The position numbers and the translations under genes are program-made. Positions 1 through 52,896 of a DNA stretch of 64,000 bases are shown here, in pieces (within the stretch, counting starts at the first letter, position 1; every line of letters starts with the position of its first letter). Below the pieces are notes generated by a model. The model was not told the origin of the DNA and made no database searches. It saw only the letters and a program-made list of their open reading frames with translations. Where the stretch lies: positions 13,206-77,205 of the forward strand of contig CAVYTY010000029.1 in NCBI GenBank assembly GCA_963771395.1, in the 5' to 3' direction. This DNA is from an uncultured Acidobacteriota bacterium. GTDB taxonomy: Bacteria > Acidobacteriota > Vicinamibacteria > Vicinamibacterales > 2-12-FULL-66-21.

Positions 1-246
1 AGCATCACCAATCTCGCACTCGGAAATGCGCACGTCGCCGTGCCAGCGATCGGACTCGTAACGGCGATCGATGACCAGGCATTGGCCGAAGGAATTGCGG
101 GCGGCTCGACCGCCGAGCATCTCGCCCACGCGGTCGATCGTCGGACCGGCTTCGTACCCGCCGATGTCTGGCTCGTATGTGAGCTCGCGCACGGGCTTGC
201 GGCCCGATGGCTGAACGATGGCGCGAAGCCTGGATTTGAGATCCAC
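1..246 (-). CDS. RNase H-fold exonuclease, MrfB/YprB-like, N-terminal 82 codons only (gene runs off the window start)
   Basis: GTG at 246-244 lies 1 nt after the helicase stop (TGA 250-248). Translation is VDLKSRLRAIVQPSGRKPVRELTYEPDIGG...VIDRRYESDRWHGDVRI. Assigned mainly by position directly downstream of a YprA/MrfA-type helicase, as in the B. subtilis mrfAB pair, plus weak motif memory. Confidence 0.4.
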   Translation of the reverse strand, partial: MDLKSRLRAIVQPSGRKPVRELTYEPDIGGYEAGPTIDRVGEMLGGRAARNSFGQCLVIDRRYESDRWHGDVRISECEIGDA

Positions 247-247
247 G

Positions 248-2834
248 TCAGTGCCCGTCCTCGATCGCCGCGTGATTTCGGCCTGGCACCGGAAGCAGCA
301 GATCGTCGAGGAGCCGCAGCGCTACCTCCTTGGCGTGGGGTCCGGTGTTGCCTTCTGGCCCGACGCAGGATGGACAGCCCGACTCGCACGGACAGCCGAC
401 AATCAGGTCGCGCGTGCGATCGAGCAGCAGCAGGTGCATCTCGTACAGCGGCCGGCTGAATCCGATGCCGCCCGGATAGTTGTCGTAGATGAAGATGTTC
501 GGCTCGGCGGCGAGCGCGGCGGTGGTGTCTGCGCCAGCATTACTCAATGCGCTTGGGGCCCCACCCCCAAGCGCTCTCGCTCGGCGACTTCGCGCCTCGC
601 TCGGGCCGCGGGCGCCCGTTCGTGGCGCTCGCTCGAGCGTCCCACCGTCCACCGAGAGCCCGATATCGTGCCGATCGCACATCAGCAGAAGCTGCGCGAT
701 GTTGCGCATCGCGAACGCGAGCCCGACGACGCCGTCGCGCCGGTCGTCGCCGCCAAACGGCAGCGCGGCCATGATGGACGAGGGGATCGTCAGCCAGTAC
801 CGACGAGGTGTGCATCTGCTGCTCCGGCAGGCTGAGCTCGCCCGATCCGACATTCTCGTTCGTATAGAACTTGATCTTCTTGAAGCCGACGACGCGGGAC
901 ACTACATGCACTTCACCGTGGGACTTTCCCGCAACATGACCAACCGGGTATTCAGATGCCAACTGCCCGCTTTTCTCAATGCTCGTGGGGCCCCCGCTCT
1001 CACTCGGCGCATCCGCGCCTCGCTCGGGCCGCAGGCGCTCCGCAAACGTCTCGAGTATGGTGACCTTCGTGTACGTGATGGCGTCCGTGTAATAGTCGCA
1101 CTCGACCGCGCGCACGAAGGCCTTGCGCCCATCGAAATCCAGGCGCTCGACCTGATAGAGCTGGCCTTCGACGATGTAGATGGCCTTTTCGTGAAGCGTC
1201 GCCGGTCCGCTCGTGAAATCGGTCTCGCCGATCACGCGTTCACCGTCAGTGGCATCGATCACGACGAAGTTGTCCGACGAGATCGACCGGAGGCTCACCG
1301 CGTCGGCCGGGTAGGACTCGTTGGTCCAGTTCCATTGCCCATCGGCGTGGTGAACGAACTCGTCCTCGGCGAGCACCGCGAGAATTTCCTGGACGTTTTC
1401 GTTTCCGAAGCCCTCGGCGTCGCTGAAAGGCAGCTCGAACGCTGCGCACTTCACGTGGTCCAGCAGGATGTGGAGGTTGTCGGGGTTGATGAGCGCGTGC
1501 TCGGGGGATGCGTCGAAGAAGTACGCCGGGTTGCGGATGATGTACTGATCGATCGGTGCGCTGCTCGCCACGAGCACCGCGGCCGAGCGCGTGGTGCGGC
1601 GGCCCGCGCGGCCCGCGCGCTGCCACGTGGCGGCAATCGTCCCCGGGTAGCCGGCCATCACCGAGACGTCGAGCGCGCCGATGTCGATCCCCAGTTCGAG
1701 CGCGTTGGTGGACACGACCGCGCGCACCTGGCCTTCGCGCAGGCCGCGCTCGATCTCCCGCCGGCGAAGTGGAAGATAGCCGCCCCGGTAGCCGCGGATC
1801 ACGTCGGCGGCGCCGGGTGGACCGTGGAAGGCGTCTTTGAGATAGGTCGTGAGGAGCTCTACCGACAGGCGGCTCTGCGCGAACACGATCAGCTGCAGCT
1901 GGTATTTCAGGAACTCGAGCGACACGCGGCGCGCTTCGGCCAGATACGAGCGCCGGATGCCCAGCTCGGCGTTGACGACCGGCGGGTTCACGAAGAGGAA
2001 GAACTTCTCCCCGCGCGGCGCGCCGCTTTCGTCGACGAGCTCGAATGGTTTCCCGGTCAGCCCTTCCGCCAGCTCGCGGGGGTTGGCGATCGTCGCCGAC
2101 GAGCAGATGAAGATGGGATCAGATCCGTAGTGCTGGCAAACGCGCTGCAAGCGGCGGAGGATGTTCGAGAGATGGCTGCCGAACACGCCGCGATACGCGT
2201 GCAGCTCGTCGATCACGACGAAGCGCAGGTTCTCGAAGAGCTTCGCCCAGCGTGGATGGTGCGGCAGGATCCCCGCGTGCAGCATGTCGGGATTGCTGAG
2301 CACGACATGCGCCTTGCCGCGAATCGCGCGCCGCGCGTCGGATGGCGTGTCTCCATCGTAGGTGAAGACGCCGATCTCGAGATCGTTGTCGCGCGTGACG
2401 AGCTCGGACAACGCGTGCAGCTCGGCGAGCTGGTCCTGCGCGAGCGCCTTGGTCGGAAAGAGGTACAGCGCGCGCGTCGACTGATCCTGAAGGATCGCGT
2501 TGAGGACCGGCGCGTTGTAGCAGAGCGTCTTGCCCGATGCCGTCGGCGTGATCGTCACCACGTTCCGTCCGGCGAGCACGTGCGCAAACGCCTGTGCCTG
2601 GTGCGTGTAGAGCTGACCGATCCCGCGCGCGGAGAGCGAGCCGATGAGGCGCGGGTCAGTGCCTTCCGGGTAGGGTGCAAACGACGCCGCCACCGCAGGC
2701 ATCCGCCGCACGGCCGTCACAATCGGGTCCGCCTCGGCTCCGCCGGGCCTGGGCGAATACGTGATCCGGCTGACCGCCTCCTGGAGCGAACGGTCCTTAT
2801 CGCCCGAGACGACCGGAAGAGTCTGTGGAACCAT
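248..2834 (-). CDS. DEAD/DEAH-box helicase with C-terminal DUF1998/MZB zinc domain (MrfA/YprA-like); frame broken once in this assembly
   Basis: ORFs 540..2834 and 248..853 are in different frames but form one protein. Motifs: TPTASGKT (Walker A), VVIDELH (DExH), SSATIANP, QRAGRAGR (motif VI), then YWLTIPSS...NIFIYDNYPGGIGFS...CPCESGCPSCV. The frames join at HTSS|YWLTIP only if one base at 797-801 (GTACC) is removed. Two GC-rich repeat copies lie inside the ORF. Confidence 0.9.
543..638. repeat. GC-rich palindromic element, copy 1, inside the helicase ORF
   Basis: Perfect 10-bp stem GCGCTTGGGG (549-558) / CCCCAAGCGC (565-574). The 42-nt core TCTCGCTCGGCGACTTCGCGCCTCGCTCGGGCCGCGGGCGCC matches copy 2 at 36 of 42 positions. 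Confidence 0.8.
975..1056. repeat. GC-rich element, copy 2, inside the helicase ORF (9-nt deletion removes one stem arm)
   Basis: CTCAATGCTCGTGGGGCCCCCGCTCTCACTCGGCGCATCCGCGCCTCGCTCGGGCCGCAGGCGCT aligns with 543-616 in the same orientation. It is translated in a different frame from copy 1. Confidence 0.8.
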
Positions 2835-5244: not shown

Positions 5245-5269
5245 GAAGTCAGTGGGTGAATGGGTGTAC

Positions 5270-5353
5270 GGCTCTGGGCTCTCGGCTTTTGGCTCTCGGC
5301 TTTGGGCTCTAGCAAGACCTTTGCGATCGCGCTCGAGGATCTTGCCTAGAGCC
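5270..5353. repeat. tandem-motif hairpin element, GGCTC-unit family with conserved core
   Basis: GGCTCTGGGCTCTCGGCTTTTGGCTCTCGGCTTTGGGCTCTAGCAAG...CTTGCCTAGAGCC. The 37-nt core at 5309-5345 has the same ends (CTAGCAA...TCGAGGATCTTGC) as 17755-17791. Confidence 0.75.
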
Positions 5354-11513: not shown

Positions 11514-11877
11514 TCACCCGGCTCGTGTGCCCGCCGGAACCGCTCGCTCGGGCACTGCCAGCACGGGCACCAGCCCGTCGGCGTGTCCGATATCGAATAG
11601 CATGGCCTCCGAGATTCCGACCAGCCATCCGGCGCGGCGGGAGGTTGACCACGAACAACGCCTGACGACCCACCACTTCCGATGGATCCGCCCGTTCCCG
11701 CTTCATGCCGACAAGCACCTGCCGGCTGTGGTCGCCGAAACTGACCCGAAGCTCGACCAGCTTCTCCGAGCCGGACACGTCCGTCAATGCTTCGATGGTA
11801 CCCACCCGAACGTCGATTCGGTTCAGCTCGTCGATCGACACCGGCGGCTTGATTGGGACGGGGACAGGCGGTGACAT
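11514..11877 (-). CDS. tRNA-binding OB-fold protein (CsaA/Trbp111-like); frame broken once
   Basis: ORF 11482..11952 from ATG 11877 gives MSPPVPVPIKPPVSIDELNRIDVRVGTIE...FVVNLPPRRMAG, then junk. Skipping one base at about 11617-11622 gives GISEAMLFDIGHADGLVPVLAVPERAVPAGTRAG-stop (TGA 11516-11514). Confidence 0.75.
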
Positions 11878-11882
11878 GTCGA

Positions 11883-12872
11883 CTACCTCGCGGCGTACTT
11901 GTCGGCGCCAAGGAAGTGGAGCGACACGTACGGCTCGCCGCCGACGACCCAACTGTCGTGCGGTTCCGGCGGAATGTAAAACAAGTCCCCCGCGCGGAGC
12001 TCGATAACCCGACCGTTGTCGAACGCCGCCGTGGCCACACCTGAAACGACCAGCCCCACGTGCTCAACGGTGCAACGCGACGCTCCAACCTCTGGACCCA
12101 CGTGCGCCGACCACTTCCAACCCGGTTGGTACGTCGCCCTGCCGATCGTCTGTCCGGCAAGGCGAACCACCTCAAAACGGCCGAGCGGCATCTCCCGGAC
12201 CTCGTCTGGAGTTTCGAACCGCCTGAGGATCACGCCGACGTCCATTCCGCCCTCCTGACGAAAGTGCCTGCGCATGGGCACGAACTGAATGTCAACGCCG
12301 CCAGGCAAGGCGTGTTGGACCGGCTCTCGAGAGATGTAGCCGCAGCTGCTGTATAGACGTTTGCCTGGCAGCGTGGCCATCAGTTCGGCCGACGCGAAAC
12401 CGCGCGCTCGGGCCTCCGCCTCGCACAGCTCGAGCGTTGTCCGGCCAAGGCCTCTGCGCGCCCAGTCCGGATGGACGAAGAACGCTCGAATCCGCGCGGC
12501 ATCGCGAGCGGGATCCAGCGGCTCGGGCTGACGATCGGCCAGGCCATCGCTTCCGAAAAGCGTCTTCCGCCAACTCCACCCGCCGCAGGCGACGAGCGTC
12601 CCGTCCGTCTCGGCCACGAAGTAGGTTCCGTCCCGGACCAATTGGGTGTCGACGCCCAGAGCGGATCCGAGCGCTGCCTCGATCTGTTCCTCGGAGTAGT
12701 CGTCTCGGCTCAGTCCACGTGTGGCGAGCGCGATGAGCCGCTCGATCTCAGGAATGTCGTCTGGAGACGCACGGCGGAACCGAGCGACGACCGCTCGTCC
12801 TTCGGGGTCTCGAATCGGAATCTGAGCAAGCACGTGGAGTCCTCGTCCGGGGGCAGGCGATGGTCGGGCCAC
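11883..12872 (-). CDS. GNAT N-acetyltransferase fused to a C-terminal cupin domain
   Basis: Single 329-aa ORF. N-terminal half has ...FVAETDGTLVACGGW...RIRAFFVHPDWARRGLGRTTLELCEAEARARGF (GNAT motif A). C-terminal half from MDVGVILRRFETPDE...GDLFYIPPEPHDSWVVGGEPYVSLHF is cupin-like. No stop between the halves. The start could also be the internal GTG at 12833. Confidence 0.75.
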   Translation of the reverse strand: MARPSPAPGRGLHVLAQIPIRDPEGRAVVARFRRASPDDIPEIERLIALATRGLSRDDYSEEQIEAALGSALGVDTQLVRDGTYFVAETDGTLVACGGWSWRKTLFGSDGLADRQPEPLDPARDAARIRAFFVHPDWARRGLGRTTLELCEAEARARGFASAELMATLPGKRLYSSCGYISREPVQHALPGGVDIQFVPMRRHFRQEGGMDVGVILRRFETPDEVREMPLGRFEVVRLAGQTIGRATYQPGWKWSAHVGPEVGASRCTVEHVGLVVSGVATAAFDNGRVIELRAGDLFYIPPEPHDSWVVGGEPYVSLHFLGADKYAAR

Positions 12873-12913
12873 TCATGGCGTTCTCGCTAACCGCCGCCTC
12901 CGAACAATTCAGG

Positions 12914-13040
12914 CTGTCACGGACTCACGGTCAACTCACGATGGCACGATGACGCGATGAACACGATGAAACCTTTAAGTCTTGTCATCGTGCTCATCGT
13001 GCCATTGTGCCATCGTGCCGGAGCCGTCGGCCCGTGACAG
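12914..13040. repeat. tandem-motif hairpin element (CACGATG unit)
   Basis: Arms of about 60 nt, 12914-12972 and 12981-13040, are imperfect reverse complements. Each arm is a degenerate array of CACGATG(N2-3). Confidence 0.85.
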
Positions 13041-14790: not shown

Positions 14791-15931
14791 TCAACCGACC
14801 CGCAGGCCCCGATCGAGCGCGAAGCATACCAACAGGATGCCGCACACCCCGAGCGTCACGACAATCCAAAAGATGACCGGCGACCAGATCCGGATGAAGT
14901 GTCGTCCCTCGGCAGCGTCCGCGCGGCTCTCGTACGATCGCATCGCCCCGGACGCCGCGTCGCCTAGACGCTGCCCGGCGTCGGCGCGCTGGCTCGCGGG
15001 CCATCTGTGGCCAGTTCGCGAGATGTACGACGGCGTATCGAGGACGGGTGCGTAGGTACTTCTCGAGGATGAGGTTCTCGGACCACGCGGCTCGAATGTC
15101 TCCCGCTTCCCACCGGTGATTCCGCTCCTGGACGTGCAGCAGTCCTTCGCTCATGTACTGGTCTTCGCGGCTCCGGCTGCGCGGTCTCTCGATCGGCGGC
15201 CGATCCTTCCAGAGCGTGAGCCGGTCCTGGCTGATGTTGAGGAGCGTCGCAGCATCGTAGCGCGACCGGAACCTCCCGGCCTCGGGATCGCTCGTCTCCA
15301 CGCCGAGGTGCACGGAGCGGACGAAGAGTGCAAAGAGGAGCGACACGGCGGCTGCCACGACGCCAATCCGTCGAAGCGATCCCGGGCGGAGCATCAACGG
15401 TCGAGCGCCGGGCGGATCGACGCCGACACTGAAGAGCAGCCCGCAGACGATTGCGGCCATGTTGAGGAAGACGTCCCGCATGTCGCCGACACGGCCGGGA
15501 ATGAACCACTGCAGCCACTCTTCGACCGTGCCGACGGCGATGCCCGCCAGCATCGGCAGCACGAACATCGAGGCGTCACCGCGCGGGCGCCAGACGCGGT
15601 AGAAGAGCAGCGCAATGACGCCGTACTCGACAAAGTGGACGCGTTCGACGGCGTCGACTTCGGCGATGCCCTGCGCGTTCCAGAGCGCGTAGACGGTCCC
15701 GAAGGCCAGGGCGAAGACGATGGCGCCGTACCTCAGCGTACGCCGATCCCGGATCCTCAGGAGGGCAACGACGATGGCCCCGCCAATCGCCAGGGCGACG
15801 GCGGTTCCGACGACCGTGGCGTACTGACCCGGGAACGTGGCCCGGATCCAGTCGCGGATGTCGCGGATGAAGGGCGTCGAGAGAATCACTGCGATCGACA
15901 GCGCCACGGCCACCGACAAGCGCACGAACAC
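14791..15931 (-). CDS. VanZ-like family membrane protein with extended C-terminal region; frame broken once
   Basis: GTG 15931. VERVHFVEYGVIALLFYR is VanZ-like. After ...SENLILEKY the listed ORF turns into Arg-rich junk. Removing one base at 15055-15059 (GTACC) gives YAPVLDTPSYISRTGHRWPASQ...WSPVIFWIVVTLGVCGILLVCFALDRGLRVG-stop (TGA 14793-14791). Confidence 0.7.
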
Positions 15932-15934
15932 TCC

Positions 15935-16094
15935 ACGGTTGTACCACAGCTGAGCTCGGGGACATCCAAGGTTGGGTGTCCCCGGGACCTACGGCTGAGC
16001 TCAGGGACATTCAACCTTGGGTGTCCCGGACCTACGGCTGGGCTCGGGGACATTCAACCTTGAGTGTCCCCGACCTCGGCTGTGGTACAACCGT
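15935..16094. repeat. composite structured element: 16-bp inverted repeat enclosing three tandem hairpin units of about 43-45 nt
   Basis: ACGGTTGTACCACAGC (15935-15950) is the reverse complement of GCTGTGGTACAACCGT (16079-16094). Between them are units 15951-15995, 15996-16038 and 16039-16080, each TGAGCTC-GGGGACA-loop-TGTCCCC-GGACCTACGGC. Confidence 0.85.
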
Positions 16095-16097
16095 CGC

Positions 16098-17726
16098 GTG
16101 AGCGTTTCCAGAGTCGTCACCGCCACCCTGGTCGCGACGGCCTCGGCCTCCGTCGCAGCCGGACTGGACCATTCCGCCCAGCAGCGGCCAGCCGGCCCGC
16201 GGATCGAGATCACGATCGCCGGGGATGCCCGCGCCGAGGCGACGACCGGGATGGTCTACGTCGCCATCAGTCGCGACAACAAGCGAACGCCGATCGAGCA
16301 GGCCGAGCCCACGGGCGCTCCTCTTTTTTCGATCCCCGTCGAGAGCCTGCAGGCCGGCACGCCGGTCGCCATCACCGCGGCCGAGCGCGGGCATCCGATC
16401 GCGAGCCTGAAGGACATCCCGGCCGGCGAATACTGGATGCAACCATTCGTCAATGTCTACACACGATTCGCGCGCGCCGACGGCAAGACCGTGTGGCTGC
16501 ACATGGATCAGTGGGAGGGCCAGAACTGGAAGCGGTCGCCGGGGAACATCTTTGGCGATCCGGTACGCATCCAGTTCGATCCCCGAACCACTTCACCGAT
16601 CCGCCTCGTCGCCGACAAGGTGATTCCGCCGATTCAGCCGCCGGCCGACACCGAGCTCGTCAAGCGCATCAAGATAGAGAGCCGAATCCTGACGAAGTGG
16701 TGGGGCCATCCGATCTATCTCGGCGCAACGGTCCTGCTGCCGAAGGACTACGACACCCGTCCCGATGTCCGCTATCCGGTGAACTACGAGCAGGGCCATT
16801 TCTCGCTGCGCGCGCCCGGCGGCTTCGGCACCGGCGGCGCCTTCGATACGTTCTGGCTCGCCTCGTCCACGCCGCGGATGATCTATGTGACGCTTCAGCA
16901 TCCATCGCCCTACTATGACGACTCGTATGGTGTGAACTCGGAGAACAACGGGCCGTTCGGCGACGCGATCCTCCAGGAGCTCATCCCCGCCATCGAGGAA
17001 GAATTCCGCGTCATCCGCGAGCCGTGGGCGCGCACGCTCTCCGGCGGATCGACCGGCGGATGGATCGCCGCCGCGCACCAGATCTTCTACCCGGATTTCT
17101 ACGGCCGCGCATTCGCCAGCTGCCCGGACTCGCTCGACTTCAGGTATCACCAGATCGTCGACATCTACAAGGACGCGAACGCGTACTTCGTCGACAAGGG
17201 CTGGATGCGCGTCGACCGCCCCAACCAGCAGCGGCCGGATGGCAACATCGAATCGATGATGAAGGACGAGAACCACTTCGAGCTCGTCGTCGGGGACAAG
17301 TCACGCTCGGGCGGCCAGTGGGACATCTGGGAGGCGACGTACTCACCCGTCGGTGCCGACGGCTACCCGAGACGCCTGTGGGACAAGAGCACCGGGCAGA
17401 TCGACAGGTCCGTCGCCGAGTCGTGGCGCAAGTACGACCTGCGCCACGTGCTCGAAACCAACTGGAGCACGCTCGGGCCGAAGGTCGCGCACAAGCTGAA
17501 CGTGTACGTCGGGGACATGGACTCGTACTATCTGAACAACGGCGTCGAGAAGCTGAACGAGTTTCTCGGCAAGGCCGACAACCCGAAGTTCACCGGCGAG
17601 ATCGTCTTCGAGCGTCGCGCCCCGCACTGCTGGGGCCCGCGCGGGGCGGACCTGATGACGAAGATGGTCCGGCACATCGAGAAATACGCGGCGCCGGGGG
17701 CGGATCTGAAGAGCTGGAGATACTGA
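16098..17726 (+). CDS. secreted esterase-family alpha/beta hydrolase (putative esterase/enterochelin-esterase-like)
   Basis: ORF 16017..17726 trimmed to GTG 16098 (VSVSRVVTATLVATASASVAAG signal). LSGGSTGGW is a GxSxG elbow. The upstream ORF codons are translated repeat DNA. Confidence 0.8.
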   Translation: MSVSRVVTATLVATASASVAAGLDHSAQQRPAGPRIEITIAGDARAEATTGMVYVAISRDNKRTPIEQAEPTGAPLFSIPVESLQAGTPVAITAAERGHPIASLKDIPAGEYWMQPFVNVYTRFARADGKTVWLHMDQWEGQNWKRSPGNIFGDPVRIQFDPRTTSPIRLVADKVIPPIQPPADTELVKRIKIESRILTKWWGHPIYLGATVLLPKDYDTRPDVRYPVNYEQGHFSLRAPGGFGTGGAFDTFWLASSTPRMIYVTLQHPSPYYDDSYGVNSENNGPFGDAILQELIPAIEEEFRVIREPWARTLSGGSTGGWIAAAHQIFYPDFYGRAFASCPDSLDFRYHQIVDIYKDANAYFVDKGWMRVDRPNQQRPDGNIESMMKDENHFELVVGDKSRSGGQWDIWEATYSPVGADGYPRRLWDKSTGQIDRSVAESWRKYDLRHVLETNWSTLGPKVAHKLNVYVGDMDSYYLNNGVEKLNEFLGKADNPKFTGEIVFERRAPHCWGPRGADLMTKMVRHIEKYAAPGADLKSWRY

Positions 17727-17727
17727 C

Positions 17728-17819
17728 GCGGCTCAAGGCTCCGGGCTTTGGGCTCTAGCAAACCCCTCGACCATGTAGTCGAAGATCTTGCGAGCGCCTG
17801 AAGCCCGGAGCCAAGAGCC
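17728..17819. repeat. tandem-motif hairpin element, GGCTC-unit family with conserved core, between convergent genes
   Basis: Left arm GGCTCAAGGCTCCGGGCTTTGGGCTCTAGCAA. Right arm TTGCGAGCGCCTGAAGCCCGGAGCCAAGAGCC is its imperfect reverse complement. Core at 17755-17791. Confidence 0.85.
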
Positions 17820-52784: not shown

Positions 52785-52896
52785 GTAATGCTGAATGCTG
52801 AGTGCTGAATGCTGAAGTGAATGGTGAAGTTGCCAACTTGAAACTCAGAGCCCTTCAGCATTCACTTCGCATTCAGCATTCAGCATTCAGAATTGA
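52785..52896. repeat. tandem-motif hairpin element (AATGCTG unit)
   Basis: GTAATGCTGAATGCTGAGTGCTGAATGCTGAAGTGAATGGTGAAG, a 22-nt loop, then CCTTCAGCATTCACTTCGCATTCAGCATTCAGCATTCAGAATTGA. The right arm contains the last codons and the stop (52889-52887) of the next gene. Confidence 0.85.

Follow-up and report, generated by a model that had tools for sequence, protein, structure and literature searches.

Near the left edge of the window (the whole 64-kb stretch of DNA that was analyzed) lies an mrfA/yprA-type helicase gene that contains two copies of a short, GC-rich element and is followed by the start of an mrfB-like gene (Table 1). The helicase combines an SF2 DEAD/Helicase_C core and a winged helix with a C-terminal, four-cysteine, Zn-binding MZB/DUF1998 domain, and an mrfB exonuclease gene adjoins it, as in members of the MrfA/YprA group. 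That both copies lie inside an MrfA/YprA-like gene on the minus strand, as originally predicted, is borne out by the match of its product to PDB 6znp (E = 4.5e-236) and by Pfam (DEAD, Helicase_C, WHD_HRQ1, and MZB); the translated gene also contains the motif CPCESGCPSC. The 120 orthologs found share 78 to 89% identity with the window helicase, whose nearest relative among 5.8 billion proteins is only 89% identical.

Table 1. Features of the mrfA-mrfB locus, in window positions
Feature	Position	Strand	Basis or detail
Start of mrfB-like gene (RNase_H_2 exonuclease), downstream of mrfA, cut by the window edge	4..246	-	tblastn, Pfam
mrfA/yprA-type helicase gene (host of both copies)	248..2834	-	861 aa with the frameshift repaired; PDB 6znp and Pfam
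Copy 1 of the ~84-nt element, site 1	534..617	+ (model orientation)	nhmmer 534-615, E = 2e-21
Hairpin 1 of copy 1: perfect 10-bp stem, 6-nt loop	549..574	+	fold
+1 frameshift	800..801	-	extra G on the gene strand: TCGTCGGTAC versus TCGTCGTAC in four orthologs
Copy 2 of the element, site 2, decayed	966..1041	+	nhmmer 966-1039, E = 8e-15

The helicase gene is not a single open reading frame: an extra base at 800/801, located between copy 1 and copy 2, divides it between ORFs 540-2834 and 248-853, and the tblastn alignment of mrfA switches reading frame at 799/801. The host frame had been described as open across both copies, which holds for each copy in its locally correct frame but not for the gene as a whole. 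Frame F1 of copy 1 contains a TAA that is the exact stop of the frameshifted ORF. The frameshift is either an assembly error or the sign of a recent pseudogene; a search for an exact match to the 764-aa ORF of the window found no record.

The two copies lie in the same orientation and are more similar than expected by chance: positions 572-615 and 995-1038 agree at 39 of 44 sites, the 20-nt head CTCAATGC..GGGGCCCC (543-562 versus 975-994) agrees at 18 of 20, and a 24-mer core with up to three mismatches occurs twice in 64 kb, versus 0.01 occurrences expected. Their earlier limits (543-638 and 975-1056) must be redrawn: as defined by the repeat family, the element ends ~15 to 20 nt sooner at the right, and positions 618-638 and 1042-1056 are host codons (LERAPRT and LETFA) found also in orthologs without the element. 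Folding recovered the perfect stem ascribed to copy 1 (549-558/565-574), and the segment that includes it (540-640) has a folding z score of -6.2. Copy 2, compared with all seven other aligned copies, has indeed lost one stem arm through a 9-nt deletion after position 994, and its fold test gave nothing significant. The peptides and the one-base frame offset quoted for the copies are both correct, such that the two are translated in different frames: mrfA reads the reverse complement of copy 1 in frame F2, yielding GARGPSEARSRRARALGGGAPSALSN, and copy 2 in frame F1, yielding ERLRPERGADAPSESGGPTSIEKS.

Aligned to 6znp, site 1 falls between Bacillus subtilis residues 671 and 678, and site 2 falls between residues 575 and 588 (in the B. 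subtilis MrfA, the connector element [CON] comprises residues 557-630 and MZB residues 631-749; PMC7797055). Copy 1 thus appears to lie in a loop within MZB, the Zn-binding domain, and copy 2 in CON, a placement taken from this alignment because the AlphaFold2 model of the repaired protein with 49 close orthologs (mean pLDDT, 48; pTM, 0.33) was too poor to place the inserts. Alignment with orthologs further establishes that the inserts are lineage specific and consist of whole codons: both sites are empty in one ortholog (L004/P0008), site 1 measures 141 nt in the window versus 66 nt when empty (+75 nt), and site 2, taken whole, measures 126 nt versus 24 nt (+102 nt), all lengths being multiples of 3.

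Copy 1 is common only to ortholog L001/P0001, which has another insert at site 2, and none of the 120 orthologs has the same insert as copy 2. Site 2 has been filled repeatedly: it holds the same element, reversed, in L002, L003, and 8 of 121 orthologs, a REPIN-like doublet occupies it in 17 of 121, and the length of its insert ranges from 0 to ~80 aa across orthologs. The doublet at site 2 of L001, which is unrelated to the element, bears a GTAG head. At site 1, a few host bases have been replaced by the element rather than simply interrupted, and there was no clean empty/filled pair giving exact insertion junctions among the orthologs compared. Copy 1 and its counterpart in L001 are identical at 82 of 82 positions, which is the longest perfect run between two genes that are 84.9% identical (the next longest is 41 nt); such identity is unexpected of neutral junk. 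The mrfB genes of L001 and L003 have their own in-frame copies of the element ~300 nt in (12892-12971 and 12874-12957, respectively), both diverged; the equivalent position in the window's mrfB lies beyond the window edge.

Outside the window, the element core was detected in at least 103 genomic stretches in a scan of representative genomes, mostly in intergenic positions. Among the matches listed, these stretches derive almost exclusively from Vicinamibacterales/Acidobacteriota MAGs, with as many as 17 loci in a single MAG; the genomes matched are relatives and do not include the source genome, so the genome-wide spread is that seen in relatives. In the stretches listed, the family model has 130 matches, mostly full length, of which 66 are intergenic, 33 are at gene edges, and 31 are inside called ORFs; in-frame copies inside real genes make up roughly a tenth. 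Such copies lie between Pfam domains in Lhr, an S9 peptidase, a PSCyt/DUF1553 protein, a PD-(D/E)XK nuclease, LigD, and UvrC, where a second copy splits the RNase H endonuclease domain; the copy in MrfB sits just upstream of its sole domain. A search with the F2 and F1 peptides retrieved only 69 short (31 to 95 aa), spurious ORFs and no large host proteins.

The ~84-nt consensus of 69 full copies (CATTTnTCAATGCTCGCGGGGCCCCACCCCCGCTCGCTCTCGCTCGGCGACTTCGCGCCTCGCTCGGGCCGCAGGCGCT) contains at least two different hairpins, and the apparent invariance of its 3' part is partly a product of the scan pattern, which required it. Two stem positions of hairpin 1 covary (GC to UA in 7 of 68 copies and CG to UA in 13 of 68), and copies from different species are 93 to 97% alike. 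All frames except F0, which has a TGA, are open (five of six). Intergenic copies are usually aimed at the downstream start codon: the A/T-rich end, often with ATG or AAGGAG/AGAGGA, faces a co-directional downstream gene in 44 of 77 copies, and the orientation bias relative to the downstream gene is 44 to 12. Two whole elements stand head to head at a few loci (L104, L107, and L079). Because the only two copies in the 64-kb window are both in mrfA and the mrfA-mrfB locus of several relatives has two to three, local spread or tolerance appears to matter as much as random transposition. An Rfam search of five element-rich loci (E ≤ 1) returned no relevant family, and, in line with the earlier statement that no such report was known for Acidobacteriota, our literature search found no account of this repeat family or of the phenomenon in that phylum; the family seems to be undescribed.

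We consider it highly probable that the two segments arose by separate insertion of a dispersed, noncoding hairpin repeat and were kept in frame at tolerant sites. Each window copy is more similar to a copy from another genome (L092, 97%; L008, 96%) than to its partner (89%), and the two are therefore independent insertions rather than an internal duplication. Derivation of one copy from the other by duplication or gene conversion within mrfA, with no mobile element involved, would account for the presence in one gene of two like-oriented copies, 430 nt from each other, and for the lack of any other match in 64 kb, but it is very improbable: the copies have differing stem variants (GCGCTT/AAGCGC versus GCTCGT), over 100 copies that are not mrfA fragments exist elsewhere, and P0001 combines copy 1 with a different insert at site 2. 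More improbable still are ancestral low-complexity linkers whose likeness at the DNA level would be due to GC-rich codon bias; the two sites are indeed loops of variable length with the Ala/Arg/Gly/Pro/Ser-rich peptides expected at high GC, but the similarity is out of frame, orthologs of 85% identity lack both segments, and the same 84 nt recur between genes and within unrelated ones. Duplication and ancestral linkers are both contradicted by the data, the linkers by the empty sites and intergenic copies.

Some properties of the family are as might be expected of a functional cis-acting DNA or RNA module of 5' leaders, whose copies in mrfA would be kept for their function: the 82-nt identity to L001, about twice the length of any other perfect run in that gene pair; the likeness of copies across species; the compensatory changes in hairpin 1; the A/T-rich end turned toward co-directional downstream genes; and the preponderance of repair genes among the hosts of internal copies. 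Under this reading, they might act as regulatory hairpins within the gene, bind a protein, or supply enzymes that handle DNA with a useful Arg-rich peptide. We nonetheless regard such a module as unlikely. The genes that follow the copies have housekeeping roles and no relation to one another (among them thiolase, ABC transporters, acyl-CoA dehydrogenase, Pth, and TrmD) and therefore form no regulon; copy 2 has decayed and lost its hairpin, divergence is seen in the mrfB copies of L001 and L003, and L002 has a site 1 copy whose core is deleted; one loop takes either orientation, as well as unrelated repeats; the five element-rich loci have no Rfam match; and the invariance of the 3' consensus was imposed in part by the scan pattern. 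It is also quite unlikely that the element is a domesticated cis-acting module tied to DNA-repair genes or a marker of sites preferred by single-strand transposition or a repair-linked process; pointers in that direction are the 82/82 identity despite 15% divergence in mrfA, the orientation toward start codons, and the concentration of in-frame copies in repair enzymes.

A small, noncoding, hairpin-bearing repeat of ~84 nt populates genomes of Vicinamibacterales (Acidobacteriota subgroup 6); under the preferred reading, independent insertion of this repeat, its gene-internal copies would survive only where they comprise whole codons, have no stop in the frame read, and sit in a loop or interdomain linker. 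The connector and the Zn-binding-domain loop of MrfA would be sites of this kind and act as a sink for repeats. Frame and orientation would then decide which of several unrelated peptides, rich in Arg/Gly/Pro/Ser and probably disordered, the same DNA yields; these peptides are presumably neutral passengers. From the distribution of copies, we infer that the element moves, or once moved, as a nonautonomous unit. Among the matches listed, no transposase, mobilizing gene, or recurrent transposase-like gene (RAYT included) was found within 1.5 kb of ~120 copies in 8-kb pieces; clustering of 304 proteins near elements and Pfam searches of the recurrent ones yielded thiolases, ABC ATPases, acyl-CoA dehydrogenase, and PDZ protease. 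The element has no terminal inverted repeats (the best inverted match of its 25-nt ends is 9/25), and no excess of flanking direct repeats indicative of target-site duplication was detected in 69 copies (k = 2 to 9, at any boundary offset). These two absences, together with the subterminal hairpins and the strong orientation bias, tentatively suggest movement by a single-strand HUH/Y1 (IS200/IS605- or RAYT-like) pathway, a possibility that we hold as doubtful. The same four traits characterize IS200/IS605-derived PATEs and REPINs (HUH Y1) and reflect single-strand transposition; for the element, no cognate Y1 transposase or conserved target tetranucleotide was found in the copies surveyed.

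The original prediction likened the segments to Rickettsia palindromic elements (RPEs), and DNA-level insertion of this kind is supported by the out-of-frame reading, the empty sites, and the intergenic copies, as well as by the occurrence of a reversed element or a REPIN-like doublet in the same loop elsewhere. RPE-1 to RPE-10 are short palindromic repeats situated between genes and in frame in many unrelated genes, with several families coexisting, and add peptide segments at fold-compatible positions, each encoding a conserved peptide according to a 2024 MITE review (PMC10969869). The element likewise occurs in frame in MrfA, MrfB, Lhr, UvrC, LigD, PD-(D/E)XK nuclease, S9 peptidase, and PSCyt proteins, in addition to its 66 intergenic copies. 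RPEs, however, are AT-rich, ~100 to 150 bp long, and found in reduced genomes of intracellular alphaproteobacteria, whereas the element is 84 nt long, very GC-rich, and present in large genomes of soil acidobacteria; translation of its DNA uses five or more of the six frames instead of giving one conserved peptide, and roughly a tenth of its copies are intragenic, versus nearly half in some RPE families. The element works like RPEs, but homology at the sequence level is implausible given its composition and host phylum.

Rickettsia is not the only precedent, as had been supposed, since in-frame intragenic REPs and ERIC/BOX/MITE fusions have been published (PMC3733652, PMC10969869). Di Nocera et al. 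(2013) described GTAG-/CGTC-tagged, GC-rich REPs that are mostly extragenic, with a minority in frame, often in replication and repair genes (uvrA/B/C, helicases, and ligase), sometimes twice per gene, and in linkers or loops, and speculated that the repair capacity of such tagged genes is modulated (PMC3733652). The hosts of the element (MrfA, MrfB, Lhr, UvrC [twice], LigD, and an AddB-like nuclease) fit this description, but the element itself does not: it is ~84 nt long with at least two different hairpins rather than a single imperfect palindrome of 20 to 40 nt, its consensus has no GTAG/CGTC head, and it lies mostly 5' of genes where REPs lie mainly 3'. Nor is it a REPIN, since its halves differ in sequence and are not inverted copies of each other. 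No RAYT was found near the copies surveyed. ERIC, BOX, Correia/NEMIS, Nezha, and the enterobacterial RU-1/2/3 are nonautonomous repeats of 70 to 300 bp with open frames and, sometimes, in-frame fusions to host genes (PMC10969869, PMC2759123); the element differs from these MITEs in having neither terminal inverted repeats nor target-site duplications.

The best-known cases of repeats turned into protein loops come from Rickettsia and, for REPs, from Proteobacteria; the present family adds the abundant, poorly studied soil Acidobacteriota. The family amounts to a clean natural experiment: translation of a single 84-nt DNA in five frames, in ten or more protein families, and recurrent hits by different repeats on a single loop of a helicase. 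For genome annotation, it means that copies of the element are mis-called as small hypothetical proteins and that length variation in ortholog alignments is inflated. This family also offers a second, independent data set for testing the recurring bias toward DNA-repair genes; were the element a domesticated module, repair capacity would be modulated by the Arg-rich loops that it inserts or by hairpins in the mRNA.

The two copies of the GC-rich, hairpin-bearing element in the helicase gene mrfA agree at 39 of 44 positions (572–615 against 995–1038) and at 18 of the 20 nt of a common head, and their 24-nt core (≤3 mismatches) occurs twice in the window versus 0.01 times in shuffled sequences. 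The stem of copy 1 is perfect over 10 bp, and the segment that holds it (540–640) has a far more stable fold than shuffled sequence (z = −6.2); in copy 2, the 9 nt of one stem arm are missing, and the fold is not significant (z = 0.1). The reading frames of the copies are offset by one base relative to their common DNA, the gene-strand peptides being GARGPSEARSRRARALGGGAPSALSN for copy 1 and ERLRPERGADAPSESGGPTSIEKS for copy 2. Identity, folding, and translation thus bear out the original prediction on the two copies, the intact and the lost stem arm, the frame offset, and the peptides, although the right-hand limits then drawn overshoot into host codons. Identity between the copies is 89%, and each is nearer to a copy in another genome (97% for copy 1, at locus L092; 96% for copy 2, at L008) than to its neighbor, which makes them separate insertions of independent origin.

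Features of the window (coordinates in nt)
Feature	Position	Strand	Remark
mrfA/yprA-type helicase gene	248–2834	minus	B. subtilis MrfA/YprA match and Pfam domains
mrfA, overlapping ORFs	540–2834; 248–853	minus	
+1 frameshift	800–801	minus (gene)	extra base versus four orthologues; between copies 1 and 2
Element copy 1 (site 1)	534–617		
Copy 1 stem	549–558/565–574		
Element copy 2 (site 2)	966–1041		
Palindromes from facing heptamer tandem arrays	12914–13040; 52787–52894; 17729–17819; 5269–5315		intergenic; e.g., (CACGATG)n/(CATCGTG)n, (GAATGCT)n/(AGCATTC)n
Three tandem 43–45 nt units inside a 66-nt inverted repeat	15924–16105		intergenic

The product of mrfA matches Bacillus subtilis MrfA/YprA (PDB 6znp) at E = 4.5e-236 and carries the Pfam domains DEAD, Helicase_C, WHD_HRQ1, and MZB. 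The host frame, previously taken to stay open across both copies, is in fact split by a shift that had gone unmentioned: the window reads TCGTCGGTAC where four orthologous DNAs read TCGTCGTAC, and removal of one extra G on the gene strand joins the two ORFs at LPEQQMHTSS/YWLTIPSS, giving a protein of 861 aa. The TAA of copy 1 in frame F1 is the exact end (540) of the frameshifted ORF. Nine further genes of the syntenic 13 kb are intact, which leaves a rare, lone assembly error or a recent pseudogenization as the origin of the frameshift.

Aligned to B. subtilis MrfA, the protein has 42 residues against 12 at chain residues 575–588 (site 2) and 46 against 6 at 671–678 (site 1), the former within the connector element (557–630) and the latter within the Zn-binding MZB domain (631–749) (PMC7797055). 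Among 120 orthologous proteins (78 to 89% identity, all from Vicinamibacterales-type metagenome bins), site 2 is hypervariable: P0008, P0013, P0019, and others lack an insert, and inserts elsewhere reach ~80 residues and comprise many unrelated sequences. At site 1, nearly all orthologues have a conserved loop of 20 residues (RTGGTGGVPAALAA); the window's insert there is common only to P0001, with a short form in P0002 and P0003 and a different insert in four proteins. Between conserved DNA anchors, site 1 spans 141 nt in the window, 66 nt when empty, and 84 nt in the orthologous locus L002, and site 2 spans 126 nt in the window, 24 nt when empty, and 111, 159, and 183 nt in L001 (the locus of P0001), L002, and L003. 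Every measured length is a multiple of three, and with the empty sites this upholds the proposal that both segments are lineage-specific, whole-codon insertions in two MrfA loops; the same loops have been used repeatedly. In a census of 121 MrfA proteins, the element is present at site 1 in two (the window's and P0001) and at site 2 in opposite orientation in eight, and only the window's reconstructed MrfA reads the site 2 element in frame F1. The opposite orientation at site 2 of L002 and L003 yields the peptide SELAGPHPRSHSRGDFAPRSGRGR, and P0010 has an ERLRPE match close to its C-terminus.

A different, REPIN-like doublet occupies site 2 in 17 of the 121 proteins. In L001 (~11800–11890), it is an in-frame inverted doublet headed by GTAG (GGTCCAGCTGAAGCCGGACACTAC ... 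GTAGCGTCCGGCTTCAGCCGGACC) encoding PAEAGHY...VRLQPD, a peptide pair found at the same site in those 17. Site 1 of L002 (5700–5790) holds an element remnant with both ends kept (GGGCGCTC and GCGCATTGAGCAAT), the central 57 nt (19 codons) being deleted and the frame preserved.

A pattern scan for CGCGCCNCGCTCGGGCCGCNGGCGC in one genome per species returned at least 103 stretches, nearly all in Acidobacteriota/Vicinamibacterales MAGs, with 8 to 17 element loci in single genomes among the matches listed, and a profile built from eight copies recovered 130 copies, mostly full length, in the DNA of the listed stretches and the orthologous loci. A consensus of ~84 nt emerges from 69 full copies, copies from different species are typically 90 to 97% identical, and hairpin 1 carries compensatory substitutions (GC to UA in 7 of 68 copies, CG to UA in 13 of 68). 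Rfam gave no match for the element in five element-rich loci (E ≤ 1). A dispersed repeat family is thereby shown to exist. The core search that had been proposed did find many further copies, intergenic and coding; the source genome is absent among the genomes in the listed matches, and dispersal is thus shown in relatives. Exact-core density is roughly one copy per several hundred kb, so the lack of a further copy in the 64-kb window is unremarkable.

Directly after the GGCGCT end of 26 copies (L021, L083, L088, L038, L090, and ~20 other loci) lies a conserved ~42-nt module (TGCTGAYWC ... CAGCACGRCC), and the element therefore seems modular or composite. Heptamer arrays similar to those of the window adjoin this end of ~10 copies in other genomes. 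Intergenic copies are annotated in public metagenomes as "hypothetical proteins" of 31 to 95 aa (P0121–P0189).

Genes were called by a simple method based on codon usage, the output of which was compared with the L001 gene calls; by this placement, 66 of the 130 copies are in intergenic DNA, 33 at a gene end, and 31 within called ORFs. With the strand that reads AGCGCC...GCGAGCATTGAGAAATG taken as the F orientation, coding sequence in the same direction occupies the next 300 nt downstream in 44 of 77 cases, and coding sequence on the opposite strand does so in 12. A start codon or an AAGGAG/AGAGGA motif is often provided by, or adjacent to, the A/T-rich end, and some copies start at the upstream gene's stop codon; L001 has an intergenic copy upstream of mrfA. 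Five of the six consensus frames are open (F0 has TGA). Deep intragenic copies lie in Pfam-confirmed genes for Lhr helicase, S9 peptidase, PSCyt/DUF1553, a PD-(D/E)XK AddB-like nuclease, UvrC (two copies), LigD, MrfB, and another MrfA (L040); C-terminal-end copies occur in SecA, an ankyrin protein, and an FG-GAP protein. Internal copies mostly fall between Pfam domains, except that the second UvrC copy interrupts that protein's RNase H endonuclease domain and the one in MrfB lies just before the sole domain of MrfB. In-frame internal copies cluster in repair genes (Lhr, AddB-like nuclease, UvrC, LigD, MrfA, and MrfB, the last as the downstream RNase_H_2 gene of L001 and L003), which account for five of the seven internal hosts that the unbiased scan recovered, a small sample counted regardless of protein length. 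Repair-gene hosts are found at L012, L066, L072, L073, L040, L001, and L003. Beside the element in L061 (PSCyt gene) and L073 (LigD) lie repeat peptides of other families (PAKAGHY, VVSGFSRT, and VASGLSRKSPPP three times); several repeat families accumulate in the same linkers.

The 69 full copies have neither terminal inverted repeats (25-nt ends) nor a flanking target duplication, and no transposase lies within 1.5 kb of ~120 copies in the stretches listed. Because of the subterminal hairpins and orientation bias, a single-strand HUH/Y1 route is our preferred guess, a tentative one. Selection probably filters the insertions, with only open-frame, whole-codon ones in loops or linkers persisting, and the encoded peptides are probably passengers. 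Full-length copies on contigs binned as Alphaproteobacteria (L055) and Bifidobacteriaceae (L084) more likely reflect mis-binned Vicinamibacterales contigs than cross-phylum spread. Fitting poorly is the copy 1 region (538–619), identical to L001 12202–12283 at 82 of 82 positions in a gene 84.9% identical overall: this is the longest perfect run in mrfA (the next is 41 nt), and the immediately flanking bases differ. Given the divergence of other orthologous copies and the decay of copy 2, selection at the DNA level, gene conversion, or chance may each be the cause. The mrfA-mrfB locus also carries two to three copies in several genomes despite the low genome-wide density.

The dispersed family and its in-frame, lineage-specific inserts support the predicted likeness to Rickettsia palindromic elements, whose behavior is the same. 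Intragenic REPs are closer still, being in frame, sometimes two per gene, and concentrated in replication/repair genes (Di Nocera et al. 2013, PMC3733652); ERIC, BOX, and other MITEs fused in frame are covered by a review (PMC10969869). Membership among REPs, REPINs, and MITEs was rejected: the element differs from REPs in size and lacks their GTAG/CGTC head, lacks the inverted doublet of REPINs, and has neither the terminal inverted repeats nor the target duplication of MITEs. A literature search turned up no account of this family, nor of the phenomenon among Acidobacteriota. The element is a new family within an already known kind, and the process itself will not surprise a specialist; its use lies in showing one DNA translated in five frames in many proteins and one helicase loop struck repeatedly, and it adds a second, independent example of the association with repair genes, for which there is no explanation as yet.
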